Positions 24,683 through 60,959 of a DNA stretch of 64,000 nucleotides are shown here, piece by piece. Position 1 is the first letter of the stretch; each line of letters opens with the position of its first letter. Below the pieces are notes generated by a model, which was given only the letters and a program-made list of their open reading frames with translations, made no database searches and had not been told where the DNA came from. The position numbers and the translations under genes are program-made. The DNA lies in NCBI GenBank assembly GCA_963667175.2, contig CAXXXF010000015.1:64001-128000 (forward strand). Reading direction: 5' to 3'. The DNA is from Candidatus Latescibacterota bacterium (GTDB taxonomy: Bacteria; Latescibacterota; UBA2968; GCA-2709665).

Positions 24683-24786
24683 GCCCCTCCAACGCGTACC
24701 GCTCCCTCTGTCGAATCACCACCTGCCACGCCGTACGATGTGTGAGCGGCGAACCATGAGCCCGCTCTGACCGGCAGAACATCGCC

Positions 24787-24895: not shown

Positions 24896-24905
24896 GCGCC
24901 TCCCG

Positions 24906-26132: not shown

Positions 26133-26734
26133 GACGTTCCCTCCAGGTGTGGCTCAGTGTTGTGTCACAGAAACAGGTTGCATGAATTCAGCAGGAGAAA
26201 TGCAGCGATCAGCACTCAGCCATCAGCAGTCAGCTTGAACCGAAATCTAAGATCAAGTTCAAAATCCCCTTTTCCCAAAATTCCCTGCCATCGAAAAACA
26301 GCTATCAGCGGTCGGCGTTCAGCCGTCAGCGAAAATCAAAAACAAAAATCAGCTCACACAAAGACACGAAGACACAAAGAGAGACAGAGCGTTCAGCCGA
26401 GAGCGAACCACCCTCAGCCCCGCAAACCTCTCCCCCCGGCCTGCCTGCGCCGAGTTCTGCTCGGCAGGCAGGCGCCGTTCTTTTTGGTCCTTTTTCTTGG
26501 GCGTACAAGAAAAAGGACGAAGAGAAAATGAGAGTTGGTGGAAGAGATAAAGCCTTTGTCCCCCAGGAGGTTAGTTCCAAAGGGAGTTGTGACCGACAAC
26601 AGGCGACCTGAGCAAGGTCGGCCGGCGATGGCACATAGACAAGCCACTGCGGCAAGCTCAGTGCAAGCAGCGCGAGCAACGCCGTGAGAAGGGATGAATC
26701 GTCGGCCGAATGGCGAGGTACGTTTGGACCCGGA

Positions 26735-34294: not shown

Positions 34295-34484
34295 CGCTCC
34301 CTCGCTTTCTTGCGATCAATCGTCAATCCGGCTTTGCAACCGCTTCACACCTCGAATTCAGCGCTCAGGGTGCTTGATCCGGTACCGCAATCTGGTCCCC
34401 CCTTGAGGGGAGTCGCCGCCTCCGGCGGCGGTGGGGGACTTCAACGCCGTACCAGATGCTACCCGCGTCTTGTTCCATGCGCCG

Positions 34485-35949
34485 TCAGATATCGTCCTCT
34501 CTCAACTCCGACAGAAGCCGTCGCCCCTTGCTTGTCACCCGGTATTTCTGCTTGCTGCTGGTCGGCTTGTTCGGTATGGTCATCTCCAGCCACCCGGCTT
34601 CCAATAGCGGCTGGAGGTAGTTCACCCGGAACGTCTTCCGGTGTTTCAATCCAAGGATCTCCATAATCTCATTCGCAAAGCGGGGTCGCCTGCAATGCCA
34701 GACAACCTGAGCGGTGACTTGGCGCTGAGTCTTGCCTGACTCTTGCTTTGGCCCGGCGCCGGTTCCCACCTCTGAGGTTGGCCTTTGGAACATTGTCGTT
34801 ACCCACGAATCGGCCACTTCGATCAACGGTTCAGCCACTCCGTGTTCACGGCACAGGTCTCGGATTCTCCGAATGCCTGAACCGATCCTCTCGACCGCCT
34901 CCATGCGGTGCAGCATGCCGAACAACAGCGGGTTGCGCGGTATGCTCTTGATACCGAGATCCGCTTCCGTCATGCCGGCGGGCAACCCGCCAGGGCTTGA
35001 CGATTTCGAGCCGGTCATTGAACAGGTAAATCTGAACGTTGGCCGTCGAACGGTAGTCTCGGTGGGCCAATGCGTTGACGACCGCCTCGCGAATGGCTTC
35101 TTCGGGCAGTTCCGGCCGTTCTTCCCGCTTTACGTGCTTAATGATGTACTCGACGTTGATCTTGGAGAGAATCCAGGCCATCACCTCTTCAATCATCGTA
35201 TAGACGTCACCGTGGAAGTCGCGCCTTTCGAGAATGCGCACCTTGTCAGTTCCCATGAAGAGCGCACATGCGACGTCCGCGCTGATATTGAACTTCCGGA
35301 TGTCCCTGGCCAGCAACCAGGCCCCGGCGTGCGTCATCCGGCCGTCTTCACCCATCAGGTGCAGGTTGCGAAGCGCGATCTCCGGATCCATATCCTCGGG
35401 AATTTTCGCGCGGCGCTGAAACACGGACCAGTTCTCTTCATCAAGGTCTTTCTCCAATGAAAACCTGTCGCACGCGGTTTCGTCGAAATGGATCAGCCCT
35501 TCCTTGTAGAAGAATTCCCGAATCTCCTCACGCGACGTCTGCTGACTGCTCGCCCCTTCTCGGATGTAGAACTTTCCTCCGAAAGCGTAGGGCTTGCCGT
35601 GCTGCGCGGGCACGGTCACGCAGAGGACGCCATCCACGCTTTCGGTCTCCACCGCGATGGGCGGCTCCGCGCTGCGGGCAATCGCCTGGACCCGGGATTT
35701 CAAGCGGTTGTGGTCAGCAACGCCGCAGACCACCCCATCGTCGGCCACGCCAATCAGGATCACGCCGCCGGTGGCATTGGCAAAGGCGCATATCTCACGC
35801 CCAAGCCCGGAAGTGCCCGAGCGTTTGAACTCGATGGTATAGCTCTCGCCAAGGGCGGCGAGGTTTGAGAGGTTCGTTTTGTTCATTATCGTGTCTGAGC
35901 GTGCCTTTTCCGTGTCGCCGTGAGCCATGCAATTGGATAACTCTGGCAA
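34485..35949 (-). pseudogene. AlbA_2 + HATPase_c_4 + C-terminal HTH protein, +1 frameshift near 34998
   Basis: EFKRS, CAFANATGG, REAVVNALAHRDY; RLEIV|SPGGLP is split by one extra A; PNKPTSSKQKY tail. Confidence 0.85.
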
Positions 35950-35999
35950 TTCAGCCGCGAATCCAGTCTCGTCGTACCCCTGTATTGCACTCCGACCCT

Positions 36000-36236
36000 T
36001 CAGGCGAGGGCGGTATACTCATAAACCGCGGTCTCGATCGTGCGAACGGGTCGGCATTGTTCCCACACCACTTGCTGTAACCGCTCGACGGTCTCCGGTG
36101 AGAAGTGCTTCTCGCCCGTCTCGACGTTGACTCGCGCCGGGACGTTTTCAATGAGGAAGAGTCGCCCGTTCAGTTCAATGTGGTAGGTCACCTTTTTTAC
36201 TACCAGCGTTTCATTCCATGCGCTGTCTTCAGACAT
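36000..36236 (-). CDS. YgiT/MqsA-type antitoxin-like small protein, orphan and lacking Zn cysteines
   Basis: IENVPARVNVETGEKHFSPET. Confidence 0.75.
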   Translation of the reverse strand: MSEDSAWNETLVVKKVTYHIELNGRLFLIENVPARVNVETGEKHFSPETVERLQQVVWEQCRPVRTIETAVYEYTALA

Positions 36237-36357: not shown

Positions 36358-36452
36358 CCATTTGTCGGTTTCAATGGCGTCCGATTGTCGGTCAATAGAG
36401 CGTCCGATTGTCGGTTAATCGATCGTCCATTTGTCGAATGAACGAAATCACA
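36358..36452 (-). repeat. Four 23-bp-period direct repeats ending in a TGT terminus (transposon end or iteron-like)
   Basis: CC(A/G)(T/A)TTGTCG units at 36358, 36381, 36404 and 36427. Confidence 0.7.
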
Positions 36453-36691
36453 CAATTTACAGAATTGTAACGCCGCAATCAAGTCGCGAGTCGAATAGCT
36501 GGCGCGAACCGGCTGGGCCAGCCAAGTCTCATTCGGATATTGGATATGGGGATAATTGCAACAGGTGGGCTTGTCACGGAAGATCCGCTCATATCCATAC
36601 GCACCGTCGGGTTCGAGCTCATCGACCGAGCCGGACACCTCGTGCGACCAGGGTGTCGGATGGATGGACAACGGTGAAAGGAATCAGCGGT

Positions 36692-38125: not shown

Positions 38126-39139
38126 TTAGTGAAGCAACTGATGGCATTCGATGGTGTTCTGTGGTTGGTTAATCCAGACTTGGTCTGGAACGCGTGGTGG
38201 ACGAGGATGCCCCTTAACAAATCGTTCAGGGTGGTTGTGATAGGCCTGGTCCAGCACCGATTGTCTGGCGGCTTGAAACTGCTGTGTCAGCCCGTGGTGG
38301 ACGGTATCGGGCGTGAGTAAGCCCAGTCCGCTGTGCCGGTGTTGTGTGTTGTACCAGGGAAAGAAGGCCTGTAAATAGGTGCGTGCTTCTTGCGGGTTGG
38401 TGAAGCGCCCGGGGTATGAAGGCGCGTATTTGAGCGTCTTGAACTGGCTTTCGGAATACGGGTTGTCATCGGACACACGGGGTCGAGAGTAGCTGGCCAG
38501 GATGTCGAGGTCCATCAGCAACTGCGAAAAGGTCTTGGCCGTCATGGGTGCGCCGCGGTCCTGGTGCAGCGTCAGTTGTCCGGGTTGAATGCCCTGTTTC
38601 TGGCATGCGTTGGCAATCAGGCGCTTGGCGTATGTGGCGCTCTCCCTTGTGGCGACCGTCCAGGCCACGACATAGCGTGAGAACAGATCCAGTACAACGT
38701 AGAGGGGATAGGTCACCCACTTGCGTGGTCCTGGCAGCCGCGTGATATCCCACGTCCAGACCTGGTTGGGCGCATCCGCCATCAAGCGGGGCGGTTCCAG
38801 ACGTGGATGACGGAGCTGGTGTCTCCGCTGGCGCACTTCCCCTGCGTCGTGAAGCAGACGGTACATGGTCCGGATCGAGCAGACATACCGCCCTTCCTCC
38901 AGCAACGCGGCGTAGACTGCCGGTGGCGCCTGGTCTGCGAAGCGGTCGTCGTGCAGGATGTCCAGCACGGCGGCGCGCTCGTTTTGGGAAAGCGCACGTG
39001 GCGACGAGGACCGCGCGCCACGAGGCGTGCGTGGGGCTGGCTGACGCGCACGGTAGACCGAAGCCCGCGCCACACCCAGGGCCCGGCACGCGGAAGCCAA
39101 GCCCACCTTCGGGGCCAGTTGTTCTGCCGCACGGATCAT
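38126..39139 (-). CDS. IS3-family OrfB DDE transposase
   Basis: WTWDIT, LDLFSR, HQDRG, DNPYSES, YNTQHRHSGL. Confidence 0.92.
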   Translation of the reverse strand: MIRAAEQLAPKVGLASACRALGVARASVYRARQPAPRTPRGARSSSPRALSQNERAAVLDILHDDRFADQAPPAVYAALLEEGRYVCSIRTMYRLLHDAGEVRQRRHQLRHPRLEPPRLMADAPNQVWTWDITRLPGPRKWVTYPLYVVLDLFSRYVVAWTVATRESATYAKRLIANACQKQGIQPGQLTLHQDRGAPMTAKTFSQLLMDLDILASYSRPRVSDDNPYSESQFKTLKYAPSYPGRFTNPQEARTYLQAFFPWYNTQHRHSGLGLLTPDTVHHGLTQQFQAARQSVLDQAYHNHPERFVKGHPRPPRVPDQVWINQPQNTIECHQLLH

Positions 39140-40025: not shown

Positions 40026-40337
40026 TTAAAATTGGGATGAAGATAGACGGGGGTACTTGAAACGTCTCGCGCCAGGGCTATTGTCTTCAAATAGAGCAAG
40101 CTGGCTGTGGAGCGCACGCATCTGCTCGAGCCTTTGCCGACTCCATTCGCGATCATCGTCCTCCCATATGAAATCAATGACTATTGCCGGCTTGAATACA
40201 GCAAGCAAGACCGCGTTGTTTTTTGCGCCAGCGATGAGCTCGCCGAGTCTATCGTAAACCGTCGCGTTTTGCAACAACGAAAGCGTCGAGTAGGTTTTTG
40301 CGGTAACCAGGAAGCGTTGTTTGCTCGTATCGGTCAA
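40026..40337 (-). pseudogene. Internally deleted conserved hypothetical gene (DUF488 partner)
   Basis: FLVTAKTYSTLS joined directly to VYDRLGELI...LAVFKP; overlaps the DUF488 stop. Confidence 0.55.
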
Positions 40338-41290
40338 AGGTGTTTTACGCCACCGTGGGGGAAGAAGGGGCGAGCGTCTCCATCTGAAGGGTGGTTCTGA
40401 TCGGTGAACTTTTCGAGCGCATTGGCGACGCAATGACGATGGCACTGTTCGGCTTCGAGTTCGAAACAGGTGAGTGCTACGGACTCGCCGGACTGCAACC
40501 AGTCGCGGATTCTTCCCAGGGCATCGCCTGGATTCGGCAGGATCGTCTGCCTATAGGTCTCGAAAAGGTCCTTGAAATCCGCTTCCGTCTTGAGACCTCG
40601 GCGTCGACGGGACTCAATCCCAAGCTCCGGAAGATGTTGGTAACGAATTCCAACACCTGAACAGGCCCGTTCAAGTGTGGTCTTGGAAAACCCATACTTA
40701 CGGCTGATCGCGTTCCGTCTCACGTCGCACAATAGGGTCACGCCTCCACGGATAAGCAGATTGAGATAAGATTCCAGCGTTCGTCCCTCGTAACCGATCG
40801 TGAATAGCCGCGACGGTGTTGTTTCGGGACGCGTGGATTCGATCCGATCAAGTGTCCGCCGATCGTCGTGCAATATCTGCTCTGCGATTTTACTGCGTAT
40901 CGCATAATACGGATACCGCCGGTAGGTATCCGCAATGAGCGCATCCCCTCGTACGCTTCGATATTGATGCGCGAACGAAGGAATCGAAATGTCTTCTAAA
41001 TCTCGCGCGATATTGCGCCCGTCTTTAGTCAGGACCCATTTCTGGTCGTCATCCGCGAGCAGTCCCCAATCCACCAGGCGGCAGCGGTCCGCATAGCTGG
41101 TGAACGAGAATGCGCCATAATGGTAGGGGACAAATTCGTAGCGTCCTTGAGGTGTCTCAGTTGCCCGGTGTGACGAAAGCCCTTTACAGTAGAGAAATAG
41201 AAGCTTCTGAAAGTCCGTATTGCTCGCGCCCCCACCAATCGCGCCAAGCAACCCAAGCAGCAGGCGCTGGCGGCTGTACAGACGCGGCAT
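40334..41290 (-). CDS. Winged-helix + DUF488 domain protein, copy 1
   Basis: FQKLLFL, FVPYHYGAFSF; FTIGYEG, DVRRNAISRKYGFSK, CFE...CHR. Confidence 0.85.
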   Translation of the reverse strand: MPRLYSRQRLLLGLLGAIGGGASNTDFQKLLFLYCKGLSSHRATETPQGRYEFVPYHYGAFSFTSYADRCRLVDWGLLADDDQKWVLTKDGRNIARDLEDISIPSFAHQYRSVRGDALIADTYRRYPYYAIRSKIAEQILHDDRRTLDRIESTRPETTPSRLFTIGYEGRTLESYLNLLIRGGVTLLCDVRRNAISRKYGFSKTTLERACSGVGIRYQHLPELGIESRRRRGLKTEADFKDLFETYRQTILPNPGDALGRIRDWLQSGESVALTCFELEAEQCHRHCVANALEKFTDQNHPSDGDARPFFPHGGVKHL

Positions 41291-41404
41291 TGTTCCTTCT
41301 TTCAATTGTTGAACTGGCACACGCGCCATCGCAATGGGTCCTGATCTGCCCAGTGAAATAGAGACGAAATTGGATACCCGGTGCGACGTGGAAAGTGGAT
41401 GTTG

Positions 41405-41446
41405 CTATAGACTGCGCACATTTCCCAAGCCGTGCTGCTCCAGGGT
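41405..41446 (-). pseudogene. C-terminal stub of a type III R-M Mod methyltransferase, copy 1
   Basis: LEQHGLGNVRSL*, the same tail as 60891-60959. Confidence 0.6.
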
Positions 41447-41479
41447 AACCGTTTTCGGCAGGATGGAACGACGCACGGT

Positions 41480-41720
41480 CTTTGTTGTAGGAACGGTTCG
41501 CGAACCGCCATTGCTCGAGCCGATCTCTGAGCATGCCTGCATTGAGCTCGGTCCCTGAGCTTGTCCGAAGGGGCGAAATGTCGAAGGGCCGGCGACGGCC
41601 GATGCGGTGGGGGGCTAAGCGCTTTACGGCATTCAAGCCAACTCGCGGATGCTTGTAATTTCGCAAGTGGAATTGAAAGAGACCCCGATATGTTCACGTT
41701 TCGGAGTCTCGTTTTGGACA
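41480..41720 (+). repeat. Composite repeat unit 1
   Basis: GTAG..GGTTCGCGAACC palindrome, GAGCTTGTC(C)GAAGGG, GATGCGGTGGGGGG, then about 110 bp similar to 44490-44600. Confidence 0.75.
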
Positions 41721-41793
41721 ACAGTGTCCGGAAGTTTACGAAAGTTGGGTCAATCGCCTCAAGCTGGAATTCGAGATTCGGATCAGATTTGTC

Positions 41794-42309
41794 TTATTTC
41801 CCCTCGTCTAGCGACTTTTGTACCTCGGCCTGGATATTCCCTTTGAGGTCACCAAGTTTAACTCGTTCTTGTTTCACTGCCTTCACCAACATCGCTTTAA
41901 CCCGCGACTTCCTTAGCCGAAAGAACCTCTCCTCCTCAATTGCAGATACGACGCGGCGAGCAACTCTTCCAAGGCGAACGTAGTCAAGTCGGCACACATC
42001 AACGTGCAGGTTAACCAATTCATGCACAGGTGTTCGACCCTTAGTATTGCTCAAAGTTTGGCCGTCTGCAAGTAGCTCATCATCGTCCAACCAAACAACA
42101 TCGAGCTTATCGACGTGATCGCGTCCCGCTGCCATCGCAAGGACTGCCTCTTCGACATCGTCTGTGTTTCCCACGCCGCATTGCCAGAAGGACAACGAGT
42201 TGTTCTGTGTCCTAAGGTCACTTGTCAACGCATCGGCCGAAATCTCTCCCTCTGAAAGTCCCGCCTTGGGTTCCCACTTGGAGAGGGTGACTTTGCGCGC
42301 CAGGAACAT
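41794..42309 (-). CDS. Hypothetical protein, possible ADP-ribosyltransferase-fold toxin
   Basis: FLARK...DLRTQNNSLSFW...HVDV; last gene of a coupled three-gene operon. Confidence 0.6.
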   Translation of the reverse strand: MFLARKVTLSKWEPKAGLSEGEISADALTSDLRTQNNSLSFWQCGVGNTDDVEEAVLAMAAGRDHVDKLDVVWLDDDELLADGQTLSNTKGRTPVHELVNLHVDVCRLDYVRLGRVARRVVSAIEEERFFRLRKSRVKAMLVKAVKQERVKLGDLKGNIQAEVQKSLDEGK

Positions 42310-42312
42310 CGA

Positions 42313-43032
42313 CTACTCCCCAAAGTCTTCGATTACTTCCCGGATGTAGTCTCGCAGCCAGTGGATCGGCTCGTGATGTGACTCCAATACGTCCCGCAAG
42401 TCTCGGTCGCCCCACCATTCTGCCGCTTGTACTGCGGCGTCTCGAATTTCCGCACTCTCCATTCCCAACCCGTCGCGTACGAGTTCTGTGCGCCACAACG
42501 CTGATCCCGGATATTCCTGGCGAGCCAGGCATCGCAGCACTTCAGCGGAGAAGGTCTGATGCTCGGCGTCCAAAGAGAGTTCTCTCAACCACTCAAGAGC
42601 CAGTTCGCTTTCCGTGGACTGCAATGCATCACGGATGACTTGCTCCGCTGGATGATACATCCCGTCCTCTAGAGGCTCGGACTCGAAGGCCGCCCACAAT
42701 GCGGACGAAAGTCGCTCTCTTGCTTGATCCTCTCCTTGTTGAGGTTTGACTTGTGCAAAGCAAACTTCATCCACGAGCATCGGAAAGAGCTCAGCATTCC
42801 ACAACGTATCAGTTGCATCCGCCGAGAGCCGCTTTAGGTACAGGTCGTAAGCCAGTTCCACCGTCGCTCTTTGCAATGACACAATATCTGACGAAGTCGC
42901 AAGCGACTCTTTACCGTAGTCGAGCCAGCGTATAACGTAATTGGACCCGCTCGATGGGTCCATCGGAGGAAGGAAATTTGGTACAAAGTCCGATGGCGTG
43001 GAACCCACAGAAGAGTGAGTTTCAAGCAGCAT
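42313..43032 (-). CDS. Acidic hypothetical protein with a HEAT-like C-terminus
   Basis: AEIRDAAVQAAEWWG...EPIHWLRDYI; overlaps the upstream gene. Confidence 0.65.
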   Translation of the reverse strand: MLLETHSSVGSTPSDFVPNFLPPMDPSSGSNYVIRWLDYGKESLATSSDIVSLQRATVELAYDLYLKRLSADATDTLWNAELFPMLVDEVCFAQVKPQQGEDQARERLSSALWAAFESEPLEDGMYHPAEQVIRDALQSTESELALEWLRELSLDAEHQTFSAEVLRCLARQEYPGSALWRTELVRDGLGMESAEIRDAAVQAAEWWGDRDLRDVLESHHEPIHWLRDYIREVIEDFGE

Positions 43033-43792
43033 TAAAGACCTCCCTTGCTTTATCGGTTATCACCGATTCAAATGCCGTTCGCTCCCGGTCCCGCAAATAA
43101 CCTGCCTTCAACAATGCCTCATCTTGCGATATCGCGTCCTCACTCTCCCATATGACGTCGAGATCGAGAAGAAATCCTACGTGATCCTGTGGAGCATTGA
43201 TTGATCCCTGAGACAAGACAATGCGTACATCATCTTCGTATGCATAGTCAACGCGACTCATAAAATGGTTCAATCGATCTGGGAAACCACTCACAACAGG
43301 CAGGGCACATTTGAGGTATCTTTCGACCGCAACCGCCTTCTGTGGAATGATAATCTTGTTTAGGTATCGAATGCCGATCCGGCACACGCCAATAGGCTCC
43401 GCGACCTTCCAATATGCGTCGAGCGCCGCTGAAATCCGGGGCCGAAATTCGTCCCAACCGCGACGGCCAAGATTGCGAGGATCCTGGTAAGGGCGTAACA
43501 TGTGAACGCTGAGGACGTCTTTGCCGACGCCAACCTGACGTTTGCCATTCGGTGTAATGAGTTGGACCTTAGCCGGCCCTGAATCGTAACTCATTCTCGG
43601 CGGCTGTCCCTCCTCGGCATTCAACGCGATGTTAACGACCTTCTGCTCCTGCGGTTTGCCACTATATTCATCGCTCAGCCTAATGTGGAGTTTGCCAGGA
43701 ATCGTGAGATCCCACTCCCGACCCGGAAGAAAACGAAACTCACAGAGCGCTTCCTCAATAGGTGGATTCCTGTAGCGACGTCGTTCGTTCAT
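43022..43792 (-). CDS. TIGR04255-family protein
   Basis: YRNPPIEEALCEFRF, RIGIRYLN, LDLD, FESVIT. Confidence 0.8.
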   Translation of the reverse strand: MNERRRYRNPPIEEALCEFRFLPGREWDLTIPGKLHIRLSDEYSGKPQEQKVVNIALNAEEGQPPRMSYDSGPAKVQLITPNGKRQVGVGKDVLSVHMLRPYQDPRNLGRRGWDEFRPRISAALDAYWKVAEPIGVCRIGIRYLNKIIIPQKAVAVERYLKCALPVVSGFPDRLNHFMSRVDYAYEDDVRIVLSQGSINAPQDHVGFLLDLDVIWESEDAISQDEALLKAGYLRDRERTAFESVITDKAREVFNAA

Positions 43793-44225
43793 CGGAATCT
43801 CTCCGCGAAAGGGATTTCAACTCCTCTTGAAGTTTGAACGCCTAACGACGTCAAATGCTCCTTACATTTCCCTAACAGTGTTGCTCCAAGTTCGCCGCCT
43901 CCGGCAAGCACGCGACGTATCGGCCGGATCGGATCTGCCGGTTTGGCATTACTAATGCTCGTCCCGTTGACGAATGTACGATCGGGCACAAGTTGCTACA
44001 GGAGCAATGTTTCCCCGCTCTTGCCGTGGTCCGAGCAGGCGGACCGCCGACCTGTTGACCAAAGCTTCCAGGATTACCGGTTCCGGCAAGCGGGAGTAGG
44101 GAGCGATTGGCGTCCAATACTCGGTTACATGACCGGCGAATTGCCGGTTGCCGGAGCGTGTAATTTTAGAGTGTCGGCGACGTGTCAATCTAAGGTATCG
44201 GGGAGCCAAGATCAAGAGACGAGTC

Positions 44226-44600
44226 TGTAGGGGCGGGTCGAATAGTGCTACAATACATTGCGATCGTTCCACCATCCTGAGGCGTTCGACTCTGCCACTG
44301 TCGCACTTTCACGTCGCAATCACTCCCCCCTTGAGGGGGAGTCGCCTGCCTGCGCCAAGCGGAGCGCCTGCCTGCCGCGGGAAGCGCAGCGGCGCAGGCA
44401 GGCGGCAGGCAGGCAGAAGCCGAGCCGGTCCCAGAGGCTGCGGTCCCTGAGCTTGTCGAAGGGGCCGACGACGGCTGATGCGGTGGGGGGATTGTGCTCT
44501 TTACCGTATGCAATCCAGGTCCTGGATGCTAGTCATTTCGCAACTGGAATTGCAAAAGACCCCGAAATGATCGCTTATCGGAGTCTCCCATAGAGCAACG
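44226..44600 (+). repeat. Composite repeat unit 2, with a nested palindrome at 44345-44413
   Basis: GTAGGGGCGG, CACTCCCCCCTTGAGGGGGAGTCG, GTCCCTGAGCTTGTCGAAGGG, GATGCGGTGGGGGG. Confidence 0.78.
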
Positions 44601-44855
44601 GAACCTGTTATTGCGGCAGAGGAGGTTGGATTCGGTCTGGACGTCATTAACGATTCCACTTATCGTTCATCGCCTGGAGGCGGCCTTCTCTGGATGACAG
44701 TTTCGCCGAAGGTGTGGGCTTAGCGTCTCGCCAATGGGTATCGCAACACATGTCATTCTGAGCGTCATCGAAGATTGCCTAACAACGCGTGGTCATTGAG
44801 CTTGTCGAAATGCCCGCATTCAGGCAGCCCCAGCGACGCGCAATTTTAAATGCAC

Positions 44856-44889
44856 TTGACATCATATGATTTATGAGTCATATTATAAT
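44856..44889 (+). promoter_or_regulatory. Promoter/operator of the higBA-like pair
   Basis: TTGACA followed by the ATATGA-N8-TCATAT palindrome, then TATAAT. Confidence 0.55.
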
Positions 44890-44891
44890 GT

Positions 44892-45107
44892 GTGAACTGG
44901 AAAGTCGATTTCCATCCGGTTACTATGCATGGAGGAGTCTGGCGGGTAGCATTTGCTTTTGATCCTGAACGCAAGGCCATACGACTGGTTGCCGGCGATA
45001 AATCGGGAGCCGGTGAACCGCGGTTCTACCAGCAACTGATCAGGAAGGCAGATCACCGTTTCGATCTGCATCTTGATCGGTTGACGGCAGAGAGGAGGAC
45101 AAAATGA
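44892..45107 (+). pseudogene. RelE/HigB (Gp49-like) toxin with a large in-frame internal deletion
   Basis: MNWKVDFHP joined to GGVWRVAFAFDPERKA..AGDKSG; the central GP.LGRP...KELR segment is absent. Confidence 0.7.
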
Positions 45108-45430
45108 GTACTCTGACAGACAGAGTGGACAAGCTGCCCCCGTCCCGACGGAAGAAAATCGAAGAACGGGCCCGGGCTCTGATCGCCGAAGAGATGTCGT
45201 TACGAGATTTGCGTAAGGCTCGAAAACATACGCAGGCGCGGGTCGCCAGGAAGCTCGGGATCAATCAGGAGAACGTGTCCCGCCTTGAACGGCGCAGTGA
45301 TCTGTTGATTTCCACCCTCAGCGGCTATGTCGAGGCTATGGGCGGGAAATTGAGTCTGGTGGCGGAGTTTCCGGACCGACCGCCGGTGGCACTGACGGGC
45401 ATTGCGTCACTCGACGACTTTTCGGAGTGA
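45104..45430 (+). CDS. XRE/HigA-type HTH antitoxin
   Basis: LRKARKHTQARVARKLGINQENVSRLE, YVEAMGGKL; ATGA overlap. Confidence 0.88.
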   Translation: MSTLTDRVDKLPPSRRKKIEERARALIAEEMSLRDLRKARKHTQARVARKLGINQENVSRLERRSDLLISTLSGYVEAMGGKLSLVAEFPDRPPVALTGIASLDDFSE

Positions 45431-45899
45431 CCGGTAATCAACGGCGCGTCATTGCGAATGGGTTTGCACGGTATCGGGTAAATCGGTTAACCCGAAGTTT
45501 GCGTCCGTGTTGCGCACTTTCCTACGGGCGTTAAAATGGCCCCAACAAATCGCGTCGGGGCCTCATCGACTGTTTCTTTCTGTCAAATCCTGAGGGTCAC
45601 CTCAGGTTCTCCGGGTCGGGAGTCATCCCTTCCGCCCAATATTCGCAGTTCGTGGCTGCCAGTTGAATCATACCCAATTCTGGGTCCCGATGCAAGACCA
45701 AATGTCGAGGGTAAAGGCCTTACGAGGCTTCGGATTACGCAACTCCCCGACGGGCTGTTCACAAAACCGTACAAATACATCGGTCAGTTTCATACAGGAG
45801 TTTCAGAATCTGGTTCGTGAACCTGGTCCGGTCCCTTCTGGCTACCGATGCCATAAACGTTCCTATTGCCTTTTCTGCCAGGCAGTTACGCAGCATTTC

Positions 45900-46082
45900 G
45901 ACCTGGCGCCGACCTTGCCCCGACTCTTGCTTGGCCCGGTTCGGGTTCCCACCTCTGAGGTCGGCCTGTGGATCCTTGTCGTTACCCACGACTCCGACTC
46001 ATCAATCAGCGGCTCAGCCACTCCGTGTTCACGGCACAGATCTCGGATTCTCCGGATGCCGGAAACCGATCCTCTCGACCGG
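45900..46082 (-). pseudogene. Diverged duplicate fragment of the 3' part of the gene at 34485-35949
   Basis: SGIRRIRDLCREHGVAEPLI matches the region around 34730-34895. Confidence 0.75.
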
Positions 46083-46114
46083 CTCGCTACGACGATGAGG
46101 AGACCGCTGTGAGG

Positions 46115-46470
46115 GTGGGGCCTGCCTGCGCCTGCCTGTCCCGTTGGAACGGCAGACAGGCCAAGCGGAGCGCCTGCCGCGGGAAGCGCAGCGGCGCAGG
46201 CAGGCGGCAGGCAGGCAGACATTCCTGTCTGCCTGCCTTACCGGTTCTTACTGTCATGAAGCCGACTGAAACAACGCTCCCGTCGCAAAATGAGTCCACA
46301 GACTCCGCGCTGATCCGTTGAACACCGTCATCGCCAGGACCGACGCGCGGTTCCTGTTGTAGGGGCGGTTCGCGAACCGCCCTTGCTCAAGCCGGTCTCA
46401 GAGCTTGTCGAAGGGGCGGGCGACGGTGGTGGGGGGTTTCAATGGCTTACCGAATGCAATCAGGGTCTCG
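46115..46470 (+). repeat. Multiply nested palindrome (46121-46215) inside a GTGGGG|CAGACATTCCTGTCTGCC REP, followed by composite repeat unit 3
   Basis: An uninterrupted host REP is at 24282-24305; GTAGGGGCGGTTCGCGAACCGCCC at about 46359; GAGCTTGTCGAAGGGG. Confidence 0.78.
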
Positions 46471-46720
46471 TTCCAGGCGCTTTCGTCAGACGTCGCCCAA
46501 GAGGTTTATTTGCTCGTGGCAAAATACCTCGAAATTCGAACAAATACAATCGGTGAAATAGAAACACCCTCCTGGAACGGAGGGTGCTTATGTGTCGGGA
46601 CGTATGCAGGTGTTTCAAGTAAAGCACAGGGGTCTCGCAAATGGCACAAAAGCATAAGATGGTATTGAAAATGCCGAGATCCTGGAGGATCTCGGCTAAG
46701 GTTTGTGAGTACTTGTACGA

Positions 46721-47092
46721 TTACGCTTGATTGTAGAGTTCAATAAGATATCTCGGTGTTTTTGGCGAATTAACGAGCCCCAATTGAATGCGTTCAAGAA
46801 CTTCAGGTTGTACAGCGTCCTGTGTTTTCACCCTACGAAATGCTAAAGCTACTTTACAGTATTCGAGACTTTCGGCGAGTCTGTAGTTAATATATGATTT
46901 ATGACTGATAAACGGATGGTCGCCAACACACAAAATCGTCGTCTCATCGCAATTAGAGTACCAGGAATTGACGTTGACAACTATGACATTTTTCTTGTCA
47001 CCCAAAGGTTCGGAAATTACAATGAATAAATGGGGTTTGTTACTGTAAAATGTGTCATGTAAAATTGCCGCGCTGCCTGGTTTCAGACACAT
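46721..47092 (-). CDS. Putative PemK/MazF-like toxin paired with a Panacea antitoxin
   Basis: HLFIVIS..VVNVNS..DETTIL..GDHPFISHKSYINY; overlaps the antitoxin stop. Confidence 0.6.
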   Translation of the reverse strand: MCLKPGSAAILHDTFYSNKPHLFIVISEPLGDKKNVIVVNVNSWYSNCDETTILCVGDHPFISHKSYINYRLAESLEYCKVALAFRRVKTQDAVQPEVLERIQLGLVNSPKTPRYLIELYNQA

Positions 47093-47649
47093 ATTGCCTG
47101 GCCGAATATCCTCTCATGGCAAACCTGGGTATGTAGTTCTTCAACTGCTGATTTGAATTGTTCTTCATCATCCATTACGGCATTCAGGATACTATTGATC
47201 GTAATGGGTAAAGAACTACCTTTCGGATCTTCATACTCTGCGAATTTATGTGTGATTTCGCAGAGAGTATCGAAATCCAATTTTCCGTAAATCTCATAGA
47301 GCTCCTGGGCAAGTTCCTCTTCCGCCCTCGACATCAGTCCAAAATCCGGCTTTTCCGTTTTAAGAAAAATGGTGTTATTCTTGCGCTCGTGGAAATATTC
47401 ATTCCAGAGTGGATCTTCTATTTCGCCTTTCAATATATCATAAGTCTTACTCACAACAGGACCAAAAGGCATCGAAACGTATGAATCAAACGTCACTGCG
47501 TGACACCATCTTTTATAGGCTTCTCTGTCCATTATATAAAGCAGTTTGATCAATGTATACATATCCAATTTGCCGCCCGCCAGTTGAACCAGATAAGCAG
47601 CCACCACACAAGTCTTGTCGGAATTAAATTTCGGTGGAATTATCGTCAT
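47083..47649 (-). CDS. Panacea (SocA/DUF4065) antitoxin
   Basis: LIKLLYIMDRE, YVSMPFGPV, LCEITH. Confidence 0.85.
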   Translation of the reverse strand: MTIIPPKFNSDKTCVVAAYLVQLAGGKLDMYTLIKLLYIMDREAYKRWCHAVTFDSYVSMPFGPVVSKTYDILKGEIEDPLWNEYFHERKNNTIFLKTEKPDFGLMSRAEEELAQELYEIYGKLDFDTLCEITHKFAEYEDPKGSSLPITINSILNAVMDDEEQFKSAVEELHTQVCHERIFGQAICV

Positions 47650-47894
47650 TATAAAATACCCCAATTGTCGGCCGATATTTCCGAGTGGATTGGAACTTCA
47701 TCTCACATCAGGAATATATTTAATAATGAAAAATTGGGCAATGGCTAATCTCGGGACACCCATCTTCTCGTTATTTTGACGAGAAGAAAAGAGGTTCATC
47801 ACGTCACAAAGCCGACAAATGCAGACAGCAGTTTCGCCAAATATCCTTGAAATCCGCTTCCGTCTTCAGACCTCGGCATCGCCGGGACCGACGC

Positions 47895-48192
47895 GGGGTC
47901 TTTGTTGTAGGGGCGGTTCGCGAACCGCCCTTGCGTGAGCCGGTCCGTGATCCTGCATTATAGAAGCAGCGAGAATCAGAATTGACATATCTCGCGTAAA
48001 GATTCGCTGTAAGATCCCAGGGAGGAAGAGCCGCCTAACGACAAACCGCGATGACGTCACCCTGTGGAGGCATTCGCCACCGGCTGTCACGCACTCACAT
48101 CGCAATCACTCCCCCCTTGAGGGGGAGTCACCTGCCTGCATTGAGCTTGTCGAAATGTCGAAGGGATGTCGACGGCTGATGCGGTGGGGGGA
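47895..48192 (+). repeat. Composite repeat unit 4
   Basis: GTAGGGGCGGTTCGCGAACCGCCC, CACTCCCCCCTTGAGGGGGAGTC, GAGCTTGTCGAAATG, GATGCGGTGGGGGG. Confidence 0.78.
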
Positions 48193-48240
48193 CTCAATTG
48201 TTACCAGGTGGCCTGATTAGGCCGATCCTGCGTTGGACGC

Positions 48241-48270
48241 AAAGGACCGCCCGAGAGGTCGGTCTTTTTG
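48241..48270. terminator. Intrinsic terminator downstream of hicBA
   Basis: AAAGGACCG...CGGTCTTTTT hairpin. Confidence 0.6.
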
Positions 48271-48282
48271 GCGTTTATCTTT

Positions 48283-48608
48283 TTATTCTGTGTGGGTTGG
48301 AGATTCGAGAGAAGGTTTTTTCGCTTTGTCTTTCTTCTTCCTCTTGAAATGTTTCCCTTTAAGGAAGCCGAGACGTATGAGGTCTTCCTCTGTCCATCCA
48401 ATTTGGCGACACAGTATATCTTCTATTAGCCCTATACTGTCGTACGGTTTTGGATGAACGTGAACTGTAACTCGTCTTCCGTCTTTAACGAAAGCTTGTC
48501 GTGCGCTTCTTGTAAATTGGCGATCCCAATTGTCACTTTTAAGACCCTTGACTATATTTTTTTAGTAATGCTTCCAAGCTGTTGTCTGGCATCTTTGGAA
48601 TAGGCCAT
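48283..48608 (-). pseudogene. HicA-like toxin frameshifted in an A7 tract (48557-48563)
   Basis: MAYSKDARQQLGSITKK | IVKGLKSDNW...RVTVHVHPK...QIGWTEEDL. Confidence 0.7.
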
Positions 48609-48952
48609 TTGGCGGTCGCCCAGTCTTGTGAGGAGTGTTTATTCTTGGGCATCTCGACGACCTGTCCTCCGCCAAATGCCACTGGTGTTCCGTCGACTTT
48701 TACAATACAGTCAGGTCCCGCCGGAATAGGCAAACCGTCCCTACAGAGGGACTCAAAGTAAAAGAAAATACCTTCCGTCAGACGAGATTCGAGCTGCTCT
48801 TCTGAATTTCCGACCTCAAGGAGACCGGGGAGCGCAGGACATGTAGCCCAGTATTCTCCGGTTTTTGGATCGTGCTTTATCTCTCTCCTGACGGCAATTG
48901 TGAGGACAGGTATCTTCGGTTTCGTACTACGCAAAAAGGAAAATGGTCTCAT
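48539..48952 (-). CDS. HicB-family antitoxin
   Basis: YWATCPALPGLLEVGNSEE, GLPIP; AGGATAGGGG RBS. Confidence 0.8.
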   Translation of the reverse strand: MRPFSFLRSTKPKIPVLTIAVRREIKHDPKTGEYWATCPALPGLLEVGNSEEQLESRLTEGIFFYFESLCRDGLPIPAGPDCIVKVDGTPVAFGGGQVVEMPKNKHSSQDWATAKWPIPKMPDNSLEALLKKYSQGS

Positions 48953-49224
48953 GGCCGTCCCCTATCCTCTGGTAAAAGTGAATGTTTGAACAGGGGAAGG
49001 CCTACCCGCGGTACCTATGCAGCGGCCTATACAGCGTCCAACATGTTCAAATAGTATTCGCATGGGGAGGTACCGTTAGAAGTAACATAGTATCCGCGGG
49101 TGTCAATAGGAAAAAGCGCCAGGGCGAAACTAAACATCGAGGGAGGATCTATGGGGTATGCTTGGTAGGTGTTGTAGTTGGATGTTATTTTGCTTGACTC
49201 TTAGCTAATTTTCTAATTTTTCGG

Positions 49225-49970
49225 CCAGGAAGAGATACGCGTCAATACCTGGCAATACTGATACATATCGGACCTCGGGTTTGCCATGTCCTCCCCTCCT
49301 GACTGTCAGGGAGACAGACAGAAGGTAGATGCGTTGCCGGAAAGTCCAAGACCTTTGTCGTATCCCAGGTGGCCTGATTAAGGCGATCCTGCAGCGACCG
49401 CAGATGGGTGATCATAGACAACGTATCATGCGTCGTCGTCTGCCGGCGGACGGTTCAGGGGGATGCCCAGGATCTCGGAGGCTTGTTCTTGGATCTCGAG
49501 GATGGTGTTCGCCTGTTCCAACCGTCGCCGCAGCCGCGCGTTTTCCTTGCGCAGTTGCTCGTTCTCGACGGCGACCTTGTCACGACGACGCCCCTTGGGT
49601 CCCCGCGGCTTGGATAGCGCCTTGAGCGACCCCTCTCGACGCGCGCGACGCCACTGGGTCAACTGCGAGGAATACAGTCCCTCGCGGCGCAGCAGCGCGC
49701 CGACTTCACCAGGGGCCTGGCAAGCGTCCGCCTCTTCCAGGATGCGAAGCTTGTACTTTGCCGTGAACCGACGACGCTTCGCGCGCGCCGGCGCCTCCGG
49801 ATCCGGCCTCGTGGTTGAGGAGGTCCCGCACGGGACCTCCTCAACCAGAGACCCCTTGCTGCCGTTGTCTCCAACATCGATTCTTGACCTCATCTCCTGT
49901 TCTCCTCTCCGCCCAATATACGACATTAAACTCGGAGGGGGAGTTGTCTCACCCTATATTGGCACGTAGG
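49225..49970 (-). mobile_element. Hybrid remnant: IS3-like left end + orfA fused to an IS21 left end and an istA stub
   Basis: orfA at 49426-49893; IS21-type TGTCTATGATC end at 49420; MANPRSDMYQYCQVLTR. Confidence 0.8.
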
Positions 49971-50448
49971 GGTCAATGCACTCCCAACGTGAATAAGAAA
50001 ACCAACTACGATAATTTCCCACTCTTGCAATTGGGTAAGGAATACCCTATATTGATACGGTACCGCTCCATTTCCTTGTTGTCAAACCCTTGTCAAGAGC
50101 GAATTTTAGCCTAGATACCGCCTCGTTATAACATCCCAGAGGCAAAACCGAAAGGGATTGGACATGGAGTTCACTACGGGATTAGCGATATTTTTAGGTG
50201 TCCAAGTAGTTATTGTGATTTTTTGGAGTTTAAGGAATATTCGTAAACTAAAGAAAGTGGCAGGAGAGTCCAATAATGATGAAGCTACCGAACAGAATAA
50301 GACGGTGGTTACGAAAACTAGCTAAACTAATAGAGCGTCTTTTCATTCCTCTAAATGTAGGTCTCGCTGGTGGCTTAATTCCTACAAATATAAATGTAGT
50401 ATTCATTCGAGATCTTTCTTAACTGTCAGTACCATACTAATTACAATT

Positions 50449-51392: not shown

Positions 51393-52890
51393 GGGAATGT
51401 ACCTATCTTAGTTGAAATAGAAGAGGCTCCGATGTAAATTGGATACGGTAGTCTGGATAAGAATTACTGTATCCTCATACGAAAGGAGCCTGTAATGAGC
51501 AAGGTATCATCGAAGTCTCGTGAAGTCAAGTTGAACACGGAAGGTGGAGTGAGGTCCAGGGCGGTCCCCCGAGGTACTCTGGAGGATGTTGACGTCCGTG
51601 TGGCCTTGATCCAGTCGCTGATCCCTCTGGGTCTGGCCGCCGTGGAAGAAATCTTGCAGAACGAGGTCGCCGCGTTGACGGGCAAGAGATACAGTCGCAA
51701 AACGTGTAAGACCCGGAATCGCCGGTGGGGCACGCAACGGGGATCGGTGTATCTATCGGACCAGAAAGTGCCCGTGGCGGTGCCGAGGGTGCGCGACGTG
51801 GTAGCCAATGAGGAGGTATCTCTCGAGGCGTATCGCCGCTTGCAGCGCCCCAGAGACATGGACGAAGGGTTGCTGCTGCGCGTCCTGGGCGGCCTCGCCA
51901 CGCGTTCCTACGCCGGTTGCGCAGAGGCGGTACCCGAGGCGTTTGGCTTGTCTTCGTCGACGGTCTCGAAGCGGTTCATCAAGGCATCAGCGGCCAAGCT
52001 CAGGCAGTTTCAAGAACGGTCGCTTGCCGGCTATGACCTGGTGGGGCTGTTTATGGATGGCAAGACCTTTGCCGATCAGCAGATGATCATCGCCCTTGGC
52101 GTGACCATCGACGGACACAAGGTCCCGCTGGGGTTCGTGCAGGCCGCCAGTGAAAATGAGCGCGTGTGCCGTCAGTTTGTCAATTCGCTCATCGATCGCG
52201 GACTGCAGTATCACCAGGGGCTGCTGTGCCTCATCGACGGCTCGAAGGGATTGCGGTCCGCGGCTCACCAAGGCCCTCTCCGGATACGTCGCCATACAAC
52301 GCTGTCAGCCTGCCTGCCGAGCATCCGGCGCAGGCAGGTGGCACAAACGGGAAAACGTGATCGCCTATCTGTCCAAATCACAGCAGGATGAGGTCAGAAA
52401 GGCCCTCCACGATGCTTACAACAAGGAGACCTACAACGACGCCAAAGCCGCACTGCAGGCCCTCAAACCCTCCCTGGCGCTGAGGAATGCAGCGGCACTG
52501 AACAGCCTCGAGGAAGGGCTCGAAGAAACCCTCACCCTGCATCGGCTGGGGCTCATGCCACAGCTCAAACAATCGTTCCGCACCACCAACTGTATCGAAT
52601 CCCTCAACGCCATGGTCGCTCAGCGCACACGAAACGTAAAGCGATGGAACAACTCCGATCAGCGATATCGGCCTGCCTGCCGGCAGGCAGGTGGTTGGCA
52701 GCCGCGCTGCTAGACATCGAGCCGCGACTGCGCCTGCCTGCAGCAGGCAGGGAGAATCAAAGGATACCGATTTCTTCCCGTACTCAGACTTGCCCTACAA
52801 AAACACCTCAACCTCGATCATGACGCGCAAGAGGCTTTCGCCGCCGACTAAGCGCCTCTCCTTTTTCAACTAAAAATAGTACTTGCCCCC
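51393..52890 (+). mobile_element. IS256-family element with an 8-bp target duplication TTGCTGGC
   Basis: IRs GGGAATGTACCTATCTTAGTTGAAA / TTTCAACTAAAAATAGTACTTGCCCCC; duplication at 51385-51392 and 52891-52898. Confidence 0.9.
51495..52851 (+). pseudogene. IS256 transposase disrupted by a +1 frameshift near 52263 and three palindromic micro-insertions
   Basis: FMDG, LIDGSKGL, QRCQ[ins]WHK, RTTNCIESLN. Confidence 0.88.
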
Positions 52891-54947: not shown

Positions 54948-54952
54948 ACCTA

Positions 54953-55496
54953 TCATGCGTCGTCGTCGTCCGGCGGACGGTTCAGGGGATGCCCAGGATC
55001 TCGGAGGCTTGTTTTTGGATCTCTAGGATCGTGTTCGCCTGTTCCAATCGTCGTCGCAAACGGGCGTTTTCCTTGCACAGTTGCTCGTTCTCGACGGCCG
55101 CCTCGTCGCGGCGACGCCCCTTGGGTCCCCGCGGCTTGGATAGCGCCTTGAGCGACCCCTCTCGACGCGCACGACGCCACTGGGTCAATTGTGAGGAATA
55201 AAGACCCTCGCGGCGCAGCAGCGCGCCAACTTCACCTGGGGCCTCGCAAGCGTCCGCCTCTTCCAGGATGCGAAGCTTGTACGTTGCCGTGAACCGACGA
55301 CGCTTCGCGCGCGCCGGCGCCTCCGGATCCGGCCTCGTGGTTGAGGAGGTCCTCCGCGGGACCTCCTCAACCAGAGACCCCTTGCTGCCGTTGTCTCCAA
55401 CATCGATTCTTGATCTCATCTCTTGTTCTCCTGTCCGCCCATGATACGACATTGAACTCGGAGTGGAAATTGTCTCACTCTATATTGGCACGTAGG
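54953..55496 (-). mobile_element. IS3-like left end + frameshifted orfA, copy 3
   Basis: Near-identical to 39136-39680 and 49426-49970; no orfB. Confidence 0.85.
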
Positions 55497-55642
55497 GATG
55501 TGTGATTATGGCAGAGGAACCCATTGATAGTTTTCCATCTATCGGGTTTCCTCATTCTTGACACTCTGGTAGGTCGTCTCTATATTGTCCATCGTCTAAG
55601 GAATTAAAGCTGTTGATTTGTCTACGGAAATCTGAGGAAGTG

Positions 55643-59689: not shown

Positions 59690-59823
59690 TTAGAATAGAA
59701 GGTCCTGAACGTCATCAGGGATTGGGAGGACCCCGACAATCACCCAGGGATTCGGTGCAACTTGATGGTATTGCTGGACCGTCCCGAGAAAACCAGAATG
59801 CATTGTTTGGTCGTGTCGTTCAA
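59690..59823 (-). pseudogene. Collapsed DUF488-partner gene: N-terminus fused out of frame to the C-terminus
   Basis: MNDTTKQCILV | FLGTVQQYHQVAPNPWVIVGVLPIP...LF*. Confidence 0.6.
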
Positions 59824-60776
59824 AGGTGTTTTACGCCGCCGAGGGGGTGGAAGGGTCGAGCGTCTCTATCTGCAGGGTGGCTCTGATCGGTGACCTTTTC
59901 GAGCGCATTAGCAACGCAATGACGATGGCACTGGCCGGCTTCGAGTTCGAAACAGGTGAGTGCTACGGACTCGCCTGAGTCCAGCCAAGCGCCGATTCTT
60001 TCCAGGGCATCGCCTTGATTCGGCAGGATCGTCTGTTCAAAGGTTTTGAACAGTTCTTTGAAATCCGCTTCGGTCTTAAGGCCTCGTCGTCGCCAGGATT
60101 CAATTCCGAGTTCCGGAAGATGTTCATAACGAATACCTACGCCTGTGCAAGCGCGCTCAAGTGTGGTCTTGGAAAACCCGTACTTGCGGCTGATCGCATT
60201 CCGTCTCACGTCGCACAATAGGGTCACGCCTGCACGGATGAGGAGATTCAGGTATTGTTCAATGGACCGCCCTTCGTAGCCAATCGTGAATAGCTGCGAT
60301 GGTGTTGTTTTGGGACGTCTGGACTTAATCCGATCAAGCGTCGGCCGATCGTCCTCCAAGACCTGCTCTGCGATTTCACTGTGTATCGCATAATACGGGT
60401 ACCGCCGGTAGGTATCCGCAACGAGCGCATCCCCTCGCAGGTTTCGATACCTTGAAGCGAACGAACGAATCGAACTGTTTTCAGAATCTCGTCCGATATT
60501 ACTCCCGTCTTCTGTCAGAACCCAATTTTGGTCGTCATCCGCGAGCAGCCCCCAATCCACCAGGCGGCGTCGGTCGGCGTAACTGGTAAACGAGAATGCG
60601 CCATAATGGTAGGGGACAAAGTCGTAGAGTCCTTGGGTTGATTGAGTAGTCCCGTGTGATGAGCGCTCCTTACAGTAAAGAAATAGAAGCTTCTGAAAGT
60701 CCGTATAGCTCACGTCCCCGCCGATCGCGTCGAGCAAGCCGAGTAGCAGGCGCTGGCGGCGGTACAGACGTGGCAT
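59820..60776 (-). CDS. Winged-helix + DUF488 domain protein, copy 2
   Basis: Same length as 40334-41290 and closely similar to it. Confidence 0.85.
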   Translation of the reverse strand: MPRLYRRQRLLLGLLDAIGGDVSYTDFQKLLFLYCKERSSHGTTQSTQGLYDFVPYHYGAFSFTSYADRRRLVDWGLLADDDQNWVLTEDGSNIGRDSENSSIRSFASRYRNLRGDALVADTYRRYPYYAIHSEIAEQVLEDDRPTLDRIKSRRPKTTPSQLFTIGYEGRSIEQYLNLLIRAGVTLLCDVRRNAISRKYGFSKTTLERACTGVGIRYEHLPELGIESWRRRGLKTEADFKELFKTFEQTILPNQGDALERIGAWLDSGESVALTCFELEAGQCHRHCVANALEKVTDQSHPADRDARPFHPLGGVKHL

Positions 60777-60890
60777 AGTTCCTTCTTTCAAATGTTGAAC
60801 TGGCACACTTGTCATCGCAATGGGTCCTGACCTGCCCCGCGTAATAGAGACGAAAATGGATACCCGGTTCGGTTGGGAGAGTGGATGTTA

Positions 60891-60959
60891 CTACAGACTG
60901 CGCACATTCCCCAAGCCATGCTGCTCCAGGATAGCTGTATAGTTGGTTTTGGCGACATC
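60891..60959 (-). pseudogene. C-terminal stub of type III Mod methyltransferase
   Basis: DVAKTNYTAILEQHGLGNVRSL*, recalled as the typical Mod tail. Confidence 0.7.

Follow-up and report, generated by a model that had tools for sequence, protein, structure and literature searches.

The attC site of integrons is an imperfect inverted repeat with a 7-nt core box at each end (R'' and R', 50–160 nt apart), and attC sites travel with their cassettes; integrase-less attC clusters are named CALIN (clusters of attC sites lacking integron-integrases). Tandem chromosomal duplication mediated by repetitive extragenic palindromes (REPs), with REPs as the join-points of direct duplications, was reportedly described by Shyamala, Schneider and Ames in 1990. 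The mosaic intergenic repeat arrays of Neisseria are also named NIMEs (Neisseria intergenic mosaic elements). According to excerpts of two papers, the hairpin repeats of these arrays are thought to supply homology for recombination (PMC3733652, PMC11893778). GTAG-tagged REPs are known, as excerpts of Di Nocera et al. (2013; PMC3733652) state, from Proteobacteria, Cyanobacteria, Chloroflexi and Planctomycetes, where they lie mostly downstream of genes, and some of their families form clusters in which flanking DNA is reiterated in tandem. In this work, we analysed a 64,000-nt stretch of DNA from a Candidatus Latescibacterota bacterium (contig CAXXXF010000015.1, positions 64,001–128,000 of the forward strand; hereafter the window, numbered from its first letter), in which four co-oriented composite repeat units separate four gene modules. 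The locus is another instance of mosaic REP-type intergenic repeats, situated in a recombining defence island. With a probability of about 60%, the units are GC-rich, host-like intergenic patches that were duplicated by unequal or illegitimate recombination and have foreign low-GC modules between them, and are not a dedicated site of cassette recombination.

As in the GTAG-tagged REPs and REP clusters of distant phyla (excerpts of PMC3733652), the palindrome of the window consists of a GTAG head and a ~20-nt GC-rich perfect hairpin, is extragenic and close to gene ends, is combined with other short repeats, and is reiterated together with flanking DNA. Bacterial interspersed mosaic elements (BIMEs) and REP doublets forming hairpins (REPINs) are different, being defined by inverted REP pairs of alternating orientation, whereas the REPs of the window are single and all direct, with no gene for a REP-associated tyrosine transposase (RAYT) in the window. 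With the Neisseria arrays (dRS3/NTS with RS elements), the locus shares the arrangement of intergenic mosaics of several short families beside variable genes (excerpts of PMC3733652 and PMC11893778), but the hairpins described in these excerpts carry a CGTC tag and have the GIY-YIG nuclease Ssn as their partner. Integron cassette arrays, integrase-less ones included, are similar in having co-oriented repeats between small, often toxin-antitoxin, modules that lie mostly on one strand. The array of the window differs from them in showing neither attC architecture nor, within the window, IntI, in having multi-gene modules with promoter-like sites of their own, and in its ragged repeat ends and a repeat composition that matches the host and not the cassette. 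REP sequences as join-points of direct duplications are common to this locus and to REP-mediated tandem duplication; the latter was reportedly described for laboratory duplications of large segments, whereas here duplication is inferred from old, diverged copies (72–94%).

The window is divided into a mostly housekeeping stretch of 60.5% GC (1–33 kb; the core region) and a lower-GC island of defence and mobile genes (~34–64 kb), which holds the units. The original prediction, made from the sequence alone, had placed four repeat units in this island, and motif counts, shuffles and direct alignments agree that they are real and beyond chance. The 14-nt palindrome core CGGTTCGCGAACCG had three exact matches in 64 kb (41494, 46366, and 47914), each preceded by GTTGTAGG. 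The motif GAGCTTGTCGAA was matched exactly four times in the window, always on the plus strand (44449, 44798, 46401, and 48143); with up to one mismatch, there were six matches vs. 0.38 expected, a number reached by none of 100 shuffles. GGTGGGGGG also had four exact matches, all on the plus strand (41606, 44482, 46428, and 48183), and none elsewhere on either strand. In local alignments between units, 38–134 nt were matched at 72–94% identity, always in direct orientation: 134 nt at 80.6% for units 1 and 2 (41579–41710 vs. 44454–44587; about 110 bp of extra similarity had been predicted for this pair), 72 nt at 87.5% for units 3 and 4, 71 nt at 83.1% for units 1 and 3, 72 nt at 81.9% plus 41 nt at 90.2% for units 1 and 4, 64 nt at 93.8% plus 81 nt at 72.8% for units 2 and 3, and 84 nt at 79.8% for units 2 and 4. 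Global alignment of the four units with MAFFT was uninformative because of their mosaic order, and local alignments were used. A fifth, degenerate unit (unit 0), outside the range that the original prediction covered, lies 5 nt past the stop of a minus-strand AlbA_2 frame (frame end 34485). Its alignment score was 27 against unit 2 (shuffles 11.5 ± 2.1) and 28 against unit 3 (8.6 ± 1.6); the scores against unit 2, unit 3 or U4b were reached by none of 500 shuffles, and the nhmmer E-value was 0.084.

Each unit is a mosaic drawn from at least five separable modules, designated A to E (Table 1). Module A is the GTAG-tagged REP hairpin with ~25 nt of common flank on either side; module B is a C6/G5 hairpin; module C is a long GCCTGCC...GGCAGGC hairpin; module D is a GAGCTTGTCGAA...GGTGGGGGG box found in all four units; and module E, complete in units 1 and 2 and missing or truncated in units 3 and 4, is a tail of ~100 nt that ends, on the gene strand, in a terminator-like hairpin. 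In unit 4, A stands before B; in unit 2, B stands before C; and in unit 3, C stands before A, so that no single linear order fits. Of the prediction that the units share their elements in the same order and orientation, the orientation was borne out (all direct), and the order failed for modules B and C, which had not been named in it. The D box of unit 1 is a hybrid, in which the form of units 2 and 3 is nested within the form of unit 4, as read directly from the sequence, and this unit carries GAGCTTGTCCGAA, a 1-nt insertion in its box. The palindrome, already predicted to be REP-like, is a REP-type element: in all three copies, GTAG is followed by a GC-rich hairpin, a perfect palindrome of 16–20 nt. 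All three REPs lie between open reading frames (ORFs), single, on the plus strand, and 1.5–4.9 kb apart. Unit 2, to which a partial palindrome had been ascribed, has no palindrome at all and keeps only GAGCCGGTC, the flank found 3' of the palindrome in the other units.

Table 1. Coordinates of repeat units, duplicated segments, and neighbouring genes in the window.
Feature	Position	Strand	Description
Unit 0	34386–34480	+	Fifth, degenerate unit; B-type hairpin, GGTGGGGG box, start of E tail
Unit 1	41454–41720	+	A 41465–41536 (REP 41487–41509), hybrid D box 41549–41614, E tail to 41720, hairpin 41676–41712
Unit 2	44270–44597	+	B 44270–44353, C 44354–44417, D 44441–44490, E to 44597; no REP palindrome
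Unit 3	46326–46470	+	A 46326–46407 (REP 46359–46382) abutting D 46393–46436, short E' tail
Unit 4	47874–48243	+	A 47874–47956 (REP 47907–47930), 101-nt unique stretch, B 48058–48139, D 48139–48192, weak E-like tail to 48243
D'	44791–44813	+	Isolated partial D box just upstream of higB promoter-like site; nhmmer E 0.029
B+C copy outside island	24779–24896	+	118 nt between two convergent core ORFs; 97.5% identical to 44311–44428
C-type hairpin repeats left of unit 3	46108–46219	+	46160–46219 vs. 44354–44417, 93.8%
M0	41418–41460	+	43-nt stretch upstream of DUF488; recurs as M0', 74%
M0'	43864–43906	+	Upstream of TIGR04255 operon; score 21 vs. 12.0 ± 1.4, 0/200 shuffles
Copy of internal AlbA_2-family gene piece	45900–46085	+	Left of unit 3; direct; 85.6% over 188 columns vs. 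34716–34901
Internal DUF488 gene fragment	47839–47888	+	90% vs. 40564–40613; score 40 vs. 10.1 ± 1.4, 0/200 shuffles
Three tightly packed ORFs	41794–43792	-	First is a TIGR04255-family protein, 7.4e-34
HigB-like (71 aa) + HTH antitoxin-like ORF	44892–45430	+	Profile search
Panacea-domain ORF + 123-aa partner of no known family	46721–47664	-	SocA_Panacea 1.4e-17
Weak HicB-like ORF + HicA-like frame	48283–48952	-	Sub-threshold Pfam scores
DUF488/PDC-M19A gene	40334–41329	-	Left of unit 1; paralogue 59820–60815
IS3-type orfA segment	39131–39681	+	Direct copies 49421–49971 and 54952–55497

Some modules recur outside the island. Besides the B+C copy in the core region, C-type hairpins are found in inverted orientation at 19413–19476 and 9781–9827, the latter 97.9% identical to 46120–46166. 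At least part of each unit, thus, belongs to dispersed repeat families and is not island-bound. Clusters of GCCTGCCTGC/GCAGGCAGGC hairpin repeats were also seen in both orientations in the core region and the island (19300–19560, 24779–24896, 26439–26521, and 52303–52338), some of them inside predicted ORFs (19234–19575).

The cores of modules A and D are widespread in other genomes. A scan for the REP plus its tag, with one genome per species, gave at least 116 stretches with the REP core identical letter for letter, the palindrome being that at 46359–46382 and 47907–47930 of the window; only the 24–28 nt core was common to them, and the flanks were unrelated. The 115 loci analysed (L001–L115) belong to Chloroflexota, Acidobacteriota, Planctomycetota, Desulfobacterota, Cyanobacteriota, Nitrospinota, Myxococcota, Bacteroidota, and other phyla, and contain 131 REP sites, 51 of them symmetric (tag on both strands) and 80 one-sided. 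When the nearest ORF on each side of the REP was scanned (n = 132), 81 matched a Pfam family at E ≤ 1e-5, nearly all of them metabolic or informational (IMPDH, EPSP synthase, L17, GlyS, DnaE, DnaJ, and others). A single toxin-antitoxin protein (BrnA) was present among these 81, and three cases were borderline: a GIY-YIG ORF, a RelA/SpoT protein, and an FtsK/PD-(D/E)XK protein. The D core GAGCYTGTCGAA was matched 16 times in 7 of the 115 loci (~0.16 matches estimated by chance), and in a Dehalococcoidia locus (L091), it lies 39 nt after the REP, oriented as in unit 3. The unrelated flanks, the housekeeping neighbours, and the wide occurrence of the D core indicate that the building blocks of the units are intergenic repeats of a generic kind, not specially associated with cassettes or defence genes. 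In sum, the modules can be separated from one another, copies of B and C also lie beyond the island, and the cores of A and D are small repeats widespread in many phyla.

Several further features of these loci were observed. The D-core repeat is hairpin-forming, and in metagenome-assembled genomes (MAGs) of Chloroflexota and Calditrichota, it lies beside CGTC/NTS-like short hairpins (L034, 6438–6490 and 7082–7135; L052, L070, and L091). Near-variants of the REP with compensating stem changes are present in the flanks of L004, L020, L038, L083, and L106. One-sided REPs located ≤300 nt from the stop of an ORF of ≥150 aa were oriented opposite to the gene in 21 cases and in the same direction in 18, and a general orientation bias of REPs relative to genes was rejected as the source of the co-orientation. 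No relevant match to the palindrome core, the D core, or their short peptide readings was found in the literature searched. A distant-match search of a plasmid collection gave no match for unit 1 and one 38-nt match, to a Cupriavidus replicon, for unit 2.

The wide distribution of the REP and D cores with unrelated flanks, together with the near-identical B+C copy 20 kb away, would also be expected if the units had arisen by independent insertions of small non-autonomous elements, REP/REPIN-like or resembling miniature inverted-repeat transposable elements (MITEs), moved by a RAYT or another single-strand nuclease whose strand specificity gives the common orientation. Associations of RAYT with REPs and of Ssn with hairpins have been published (excerpts of PMC3733652 and PMC11893778), and one locus, L065 (5001–5377, a Pirellulales MAG), has a single-domain GIY-YIG ORF of 69 aa, with a REP ~145 nt upstream of it and D-like CCCTGAGC...GTCGAAGG repeats after it. 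An identical 7-nt direct repeat brackets the REP in L065 and in L018 (5001–5330); it may be a target duplication or merely reflect common ancestry. Against insertion stands the length of the similarity within the island: the A modules there share 72 nt around the 24-nt REP and units 1 and 2 share 134 nt, far beyond the mobile cores of 24–28 nt common to other genomes, so the island copies were copied as larger pieces and are paralogues rather than independent insertions. No RAYT or GIY-YIG gene was found in the window (Pfam scan of ORFs, and tblastn for GIY-YIG), the GIY-YIG ORF of L065, used as a tblastn query for the window and all loci, matched only itself, and none of the 132 ORFs flanking REPs in other genomes was a Y1 transposase. 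The published degenerate Ssn-related motif (SRM) pattern had 0 matches in the window, where shuffles average 0.54, and pairs of one-sided REPs within other loci were co-oriented three times and opposed three times among the matches listed. We, therefore, regard independent insertion as an unlikely origin of the units.

Scars of recombination are found directly beside the units. The original prediction had noticed fragments of genes at the junctions, and both were identified: the fragment left of unit 3 was copied from the interior of the AlbA_2-family gene, and that beside unit 4 corresponds to an internal piece of the DUF488 gene. Over 15 nt, the latter coincides with the left edge of module A, and these nucleotides resemble both partners. 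This overlap is the signature of a microhomology-mediated deletion from a layout like that of unit 1, in which A, M0, and a full DUF488 gene adjoin. The M0' copy lies to the left of unit 2, and the homology of the two DUF488 copies breaks off 7 nt short of unit 1. All 18 non-palindromic repeat pairs within 34–64 kb, including three orfA segments of the IS3 type of insertion sequence (IS), are direct; the common orientation is thus a trait of all island duplications and not of the units alone.

Taken as host-like patches, the units probably increased in number through direct duplication of segments or through unequal homologous recombination and would next have been reshuffled by gene conversion and microhomology-mediated deletion. 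Lower-GC foreign toxin-antitoxin and defence modules would have been inserted, or would have survived, between the patches. At present, the patches probably act mainly in a passive way: their homology would favour unequal exchange and deletion and so keep the island recombinogenic, as has reportedly been argued for REPs at the join-points of duplications and, in excerpts of PMC11893778, for the Neisseria hairpin repeats.

Several observations weigh against this reading. All five units are co-oriented, and the intervals between units 1 and 4 each hold a different self-contained module with a GC content of its own. Both features are also predicted by a capture mechanism, according to which the composite unit is a true recombination site or landing pad for stepwise acquisition of toxin-antitoxin and defence genes, either integron-like or through integrase-less elements that accumulate in tandem at an att site, while an enzyme encoded elsewhere in the genome acts in trans. 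In the window, modules A, D, and E occur nowhere but in the island, and 3 of 3 REPs lie within 6.5 kb of the 64 kb, so these modules are not evenly dense within the window; this would suit capture as well, as would the homology of the two DUF488 copies, which stops at 41447, 7 nt before unit 1. A weak match of 44108–44225 to 36375–36492 (59%; 35% over 69 aa) is on the "wrong" side of M0', which means that the remnants are not strictly collinear with 34–41 kb, and the left flank of unit 3 has no significant trace of DUF488 (score 13 vs. 10.2 ± 1.3, reached by 10 of 200 shuffles). A collinear tandem block (unit, AlbA_2 ... DUF488, M0, unit) fits the DUF488 fragment, M0', and the AlbA_2 fragment; it does not fit the weak match at 44108–44225 and was rejected. 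The idea is kept only in the form of a looser segmental duplication plus reshuffling.

Other observations speak against capture. Consensus R'' and R' boxes 50–160 nt apart were sought on both strands of 40–50 kb, and no such pair was found in any unit; the sole candidate in this range (49036–49183) is outside the units and has a weak fold. No tyrosine recombinase (Phage_integrase) was detected among 62 ORFs of the window scanned against Pfam, the unscanned ORFs all being <140 aa, and the only integrase-fold match was the DDE (rve) transposase at 38126–39139. Two claims of the original prediction, that attC sites are lacking and that no integrase is visible in the window, thus hold. There is no sharp common crossover point: similarity between units starts and stops at differing points, unit ends are ragged, module content varies, and unit 2 has no palindrome. 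The remnants of chromosomal genes beside the units are not produced by circle insertion. GC content is 57–70% in the units and 60.5% in the core region, and 40.5% in the Panacea pair, 46% in the hicBA-like pair, 53% in the TIGR04255 operon, and 56% in higBA (range 0.405–0.562); being host-like whatever the GC of the adjacent module, the units behave as a scaffold and do not travel with cassettes. The interval between units 0 and 1 spans 7 kb and contains an aminotransferase, an IS, and DUF488, so the rule of one module per interval fails beyond units 1–4. REPs in other genomes, as given above, have no link to such genes (1 of 81 toxin-antitoxin). Capture at the units is improbable on this evidence. 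The predicted array "built by recombination at REP-like repeats" is upheld as far as the recombination scars go (the gene fragments, the 15-nt join, and the hybrid D box of unit 1); its integron-like character is not supported.

A variant of capture needs neither an integrase nor attC sites. The A-D-E patch would be a host-encoded landing pad, whose GTAG hairpin is nicked by a single-strand-specific, RAYT- or Ssn-like enzyme encoded elsewhere, and repair templated by the neighbouring patch would capture or swap defence and toxin-antitoxin modules, giving a cassette array native to the lineage. We consider such a mechanism highly unlikely.

Alternatively, the units might be maintained by selection for a function in the minus-strand operons, as elements of the 3' end or as regulatory RNA (a terminator, a stabiliser of mRNA, or a small RNA). 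Four of the five units lie 5–250 nt beyond the stop of a minus-strand gene, REPs are reported to be mostly downstream of genes and transcribed (excerpts of PMC3733652), and units 1 and 2 both keep, at the minus-strand end of module E, a hairpin of 10 pairs with a U-rich run behind it. A terminator role is plausible for E, which is probably a 3'-end terminator element of minus-strand operons. For the units as a whole, such selection is very doubtful. Unit 2 does not come after a minus-strand gene, units 3 and 4 have a truncated E or none, and the Panacea operon has its own terminator-like site (46696–46673) before unit 3. Whole-unit folds were no better than those of shuffles (z -0.62 and -0.76), compensatory changes occurred in 2 of 31 predicted pairs in a comparison of two sequences, and Rfam gave no match at the gathering score in the whole window. 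In a permissive Rfam search of 41.3–48.4 kb, the sole match was Chloroflexi-1 at 46187–46267 (+), with 23.2 bits vs. the 80-bit gathering score and E 0.28. It overlies the C-type hairpin region and was treated as a chance match.

The gene modules between the units were examined by profile searches. The original prediction had assigned one module to each interval; the TIGR04255 operon, the HigB-like/HTH pair, and the Panacea pair were recovered, and the hicBA pair is doubtful, with HicA_toxin at 19.8 bits and HicB_lk_antitox at 15.2 bits, both under the 27-bit cut-off. No PADLOC match was obtained for the ORFs at 41794–43792. The HigB-like ORF (44892–45107, +) covers only the C-terminal half of the Gp49 profile, and the HicA-like frame (48283–48561, -) has no ATG, GTG, or TTG start; both toxin candidates look damaged.

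The island as a whole contains an AlbA_2/Schlafen-type gene, IS3- and IS256-type transposase genes, two DUF488 genes, the TIGR04255 operon, the HigB-like/HTH and Panacea-domain pairs, a HEPN protein, a ThsB-type TIR pair, a type III restriction enzyme, and Avs2. Both DUF488 genes match the PADLOC candidate system PDC-M19A, and their duplication includes the upstream region (40305–41447 vs. 59791–60933, 84.9% over 1145 nt); the second copy lies directly downstream of Avs2, with no unit in between. The AlbA_2-family gene (34485–36018, -) is present in two overlapping frames, 34846–36018 and 34485–35129, which points to a frameshift, a pseudogene, or a sequencing error. The first and second IS3 orfA copies bracket the entire repeat array. 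The three copies are 87–90% identical, and each has an intact ORF of 156–166 aa and an internal 36-nt near-perfect palindrome; the rve transposase ORF follows the first copy only. Copies 2 and 3 have a common left extension of ~180 nt, different from that of copy 1, and 28 nt of it recur at 48204–48231 beside unit 4.

If the units are indeed duplicated host-like patches, short dispersed repeats and microhomology would give a defence island a cassette-like look with no dedicated recombinase, and this would be a caution for scans in which a repeat-gene-repeat pattern is taken as evidence of an integron-like system. Were the units true capture sites, they would represent a new route of defence-island assembly.

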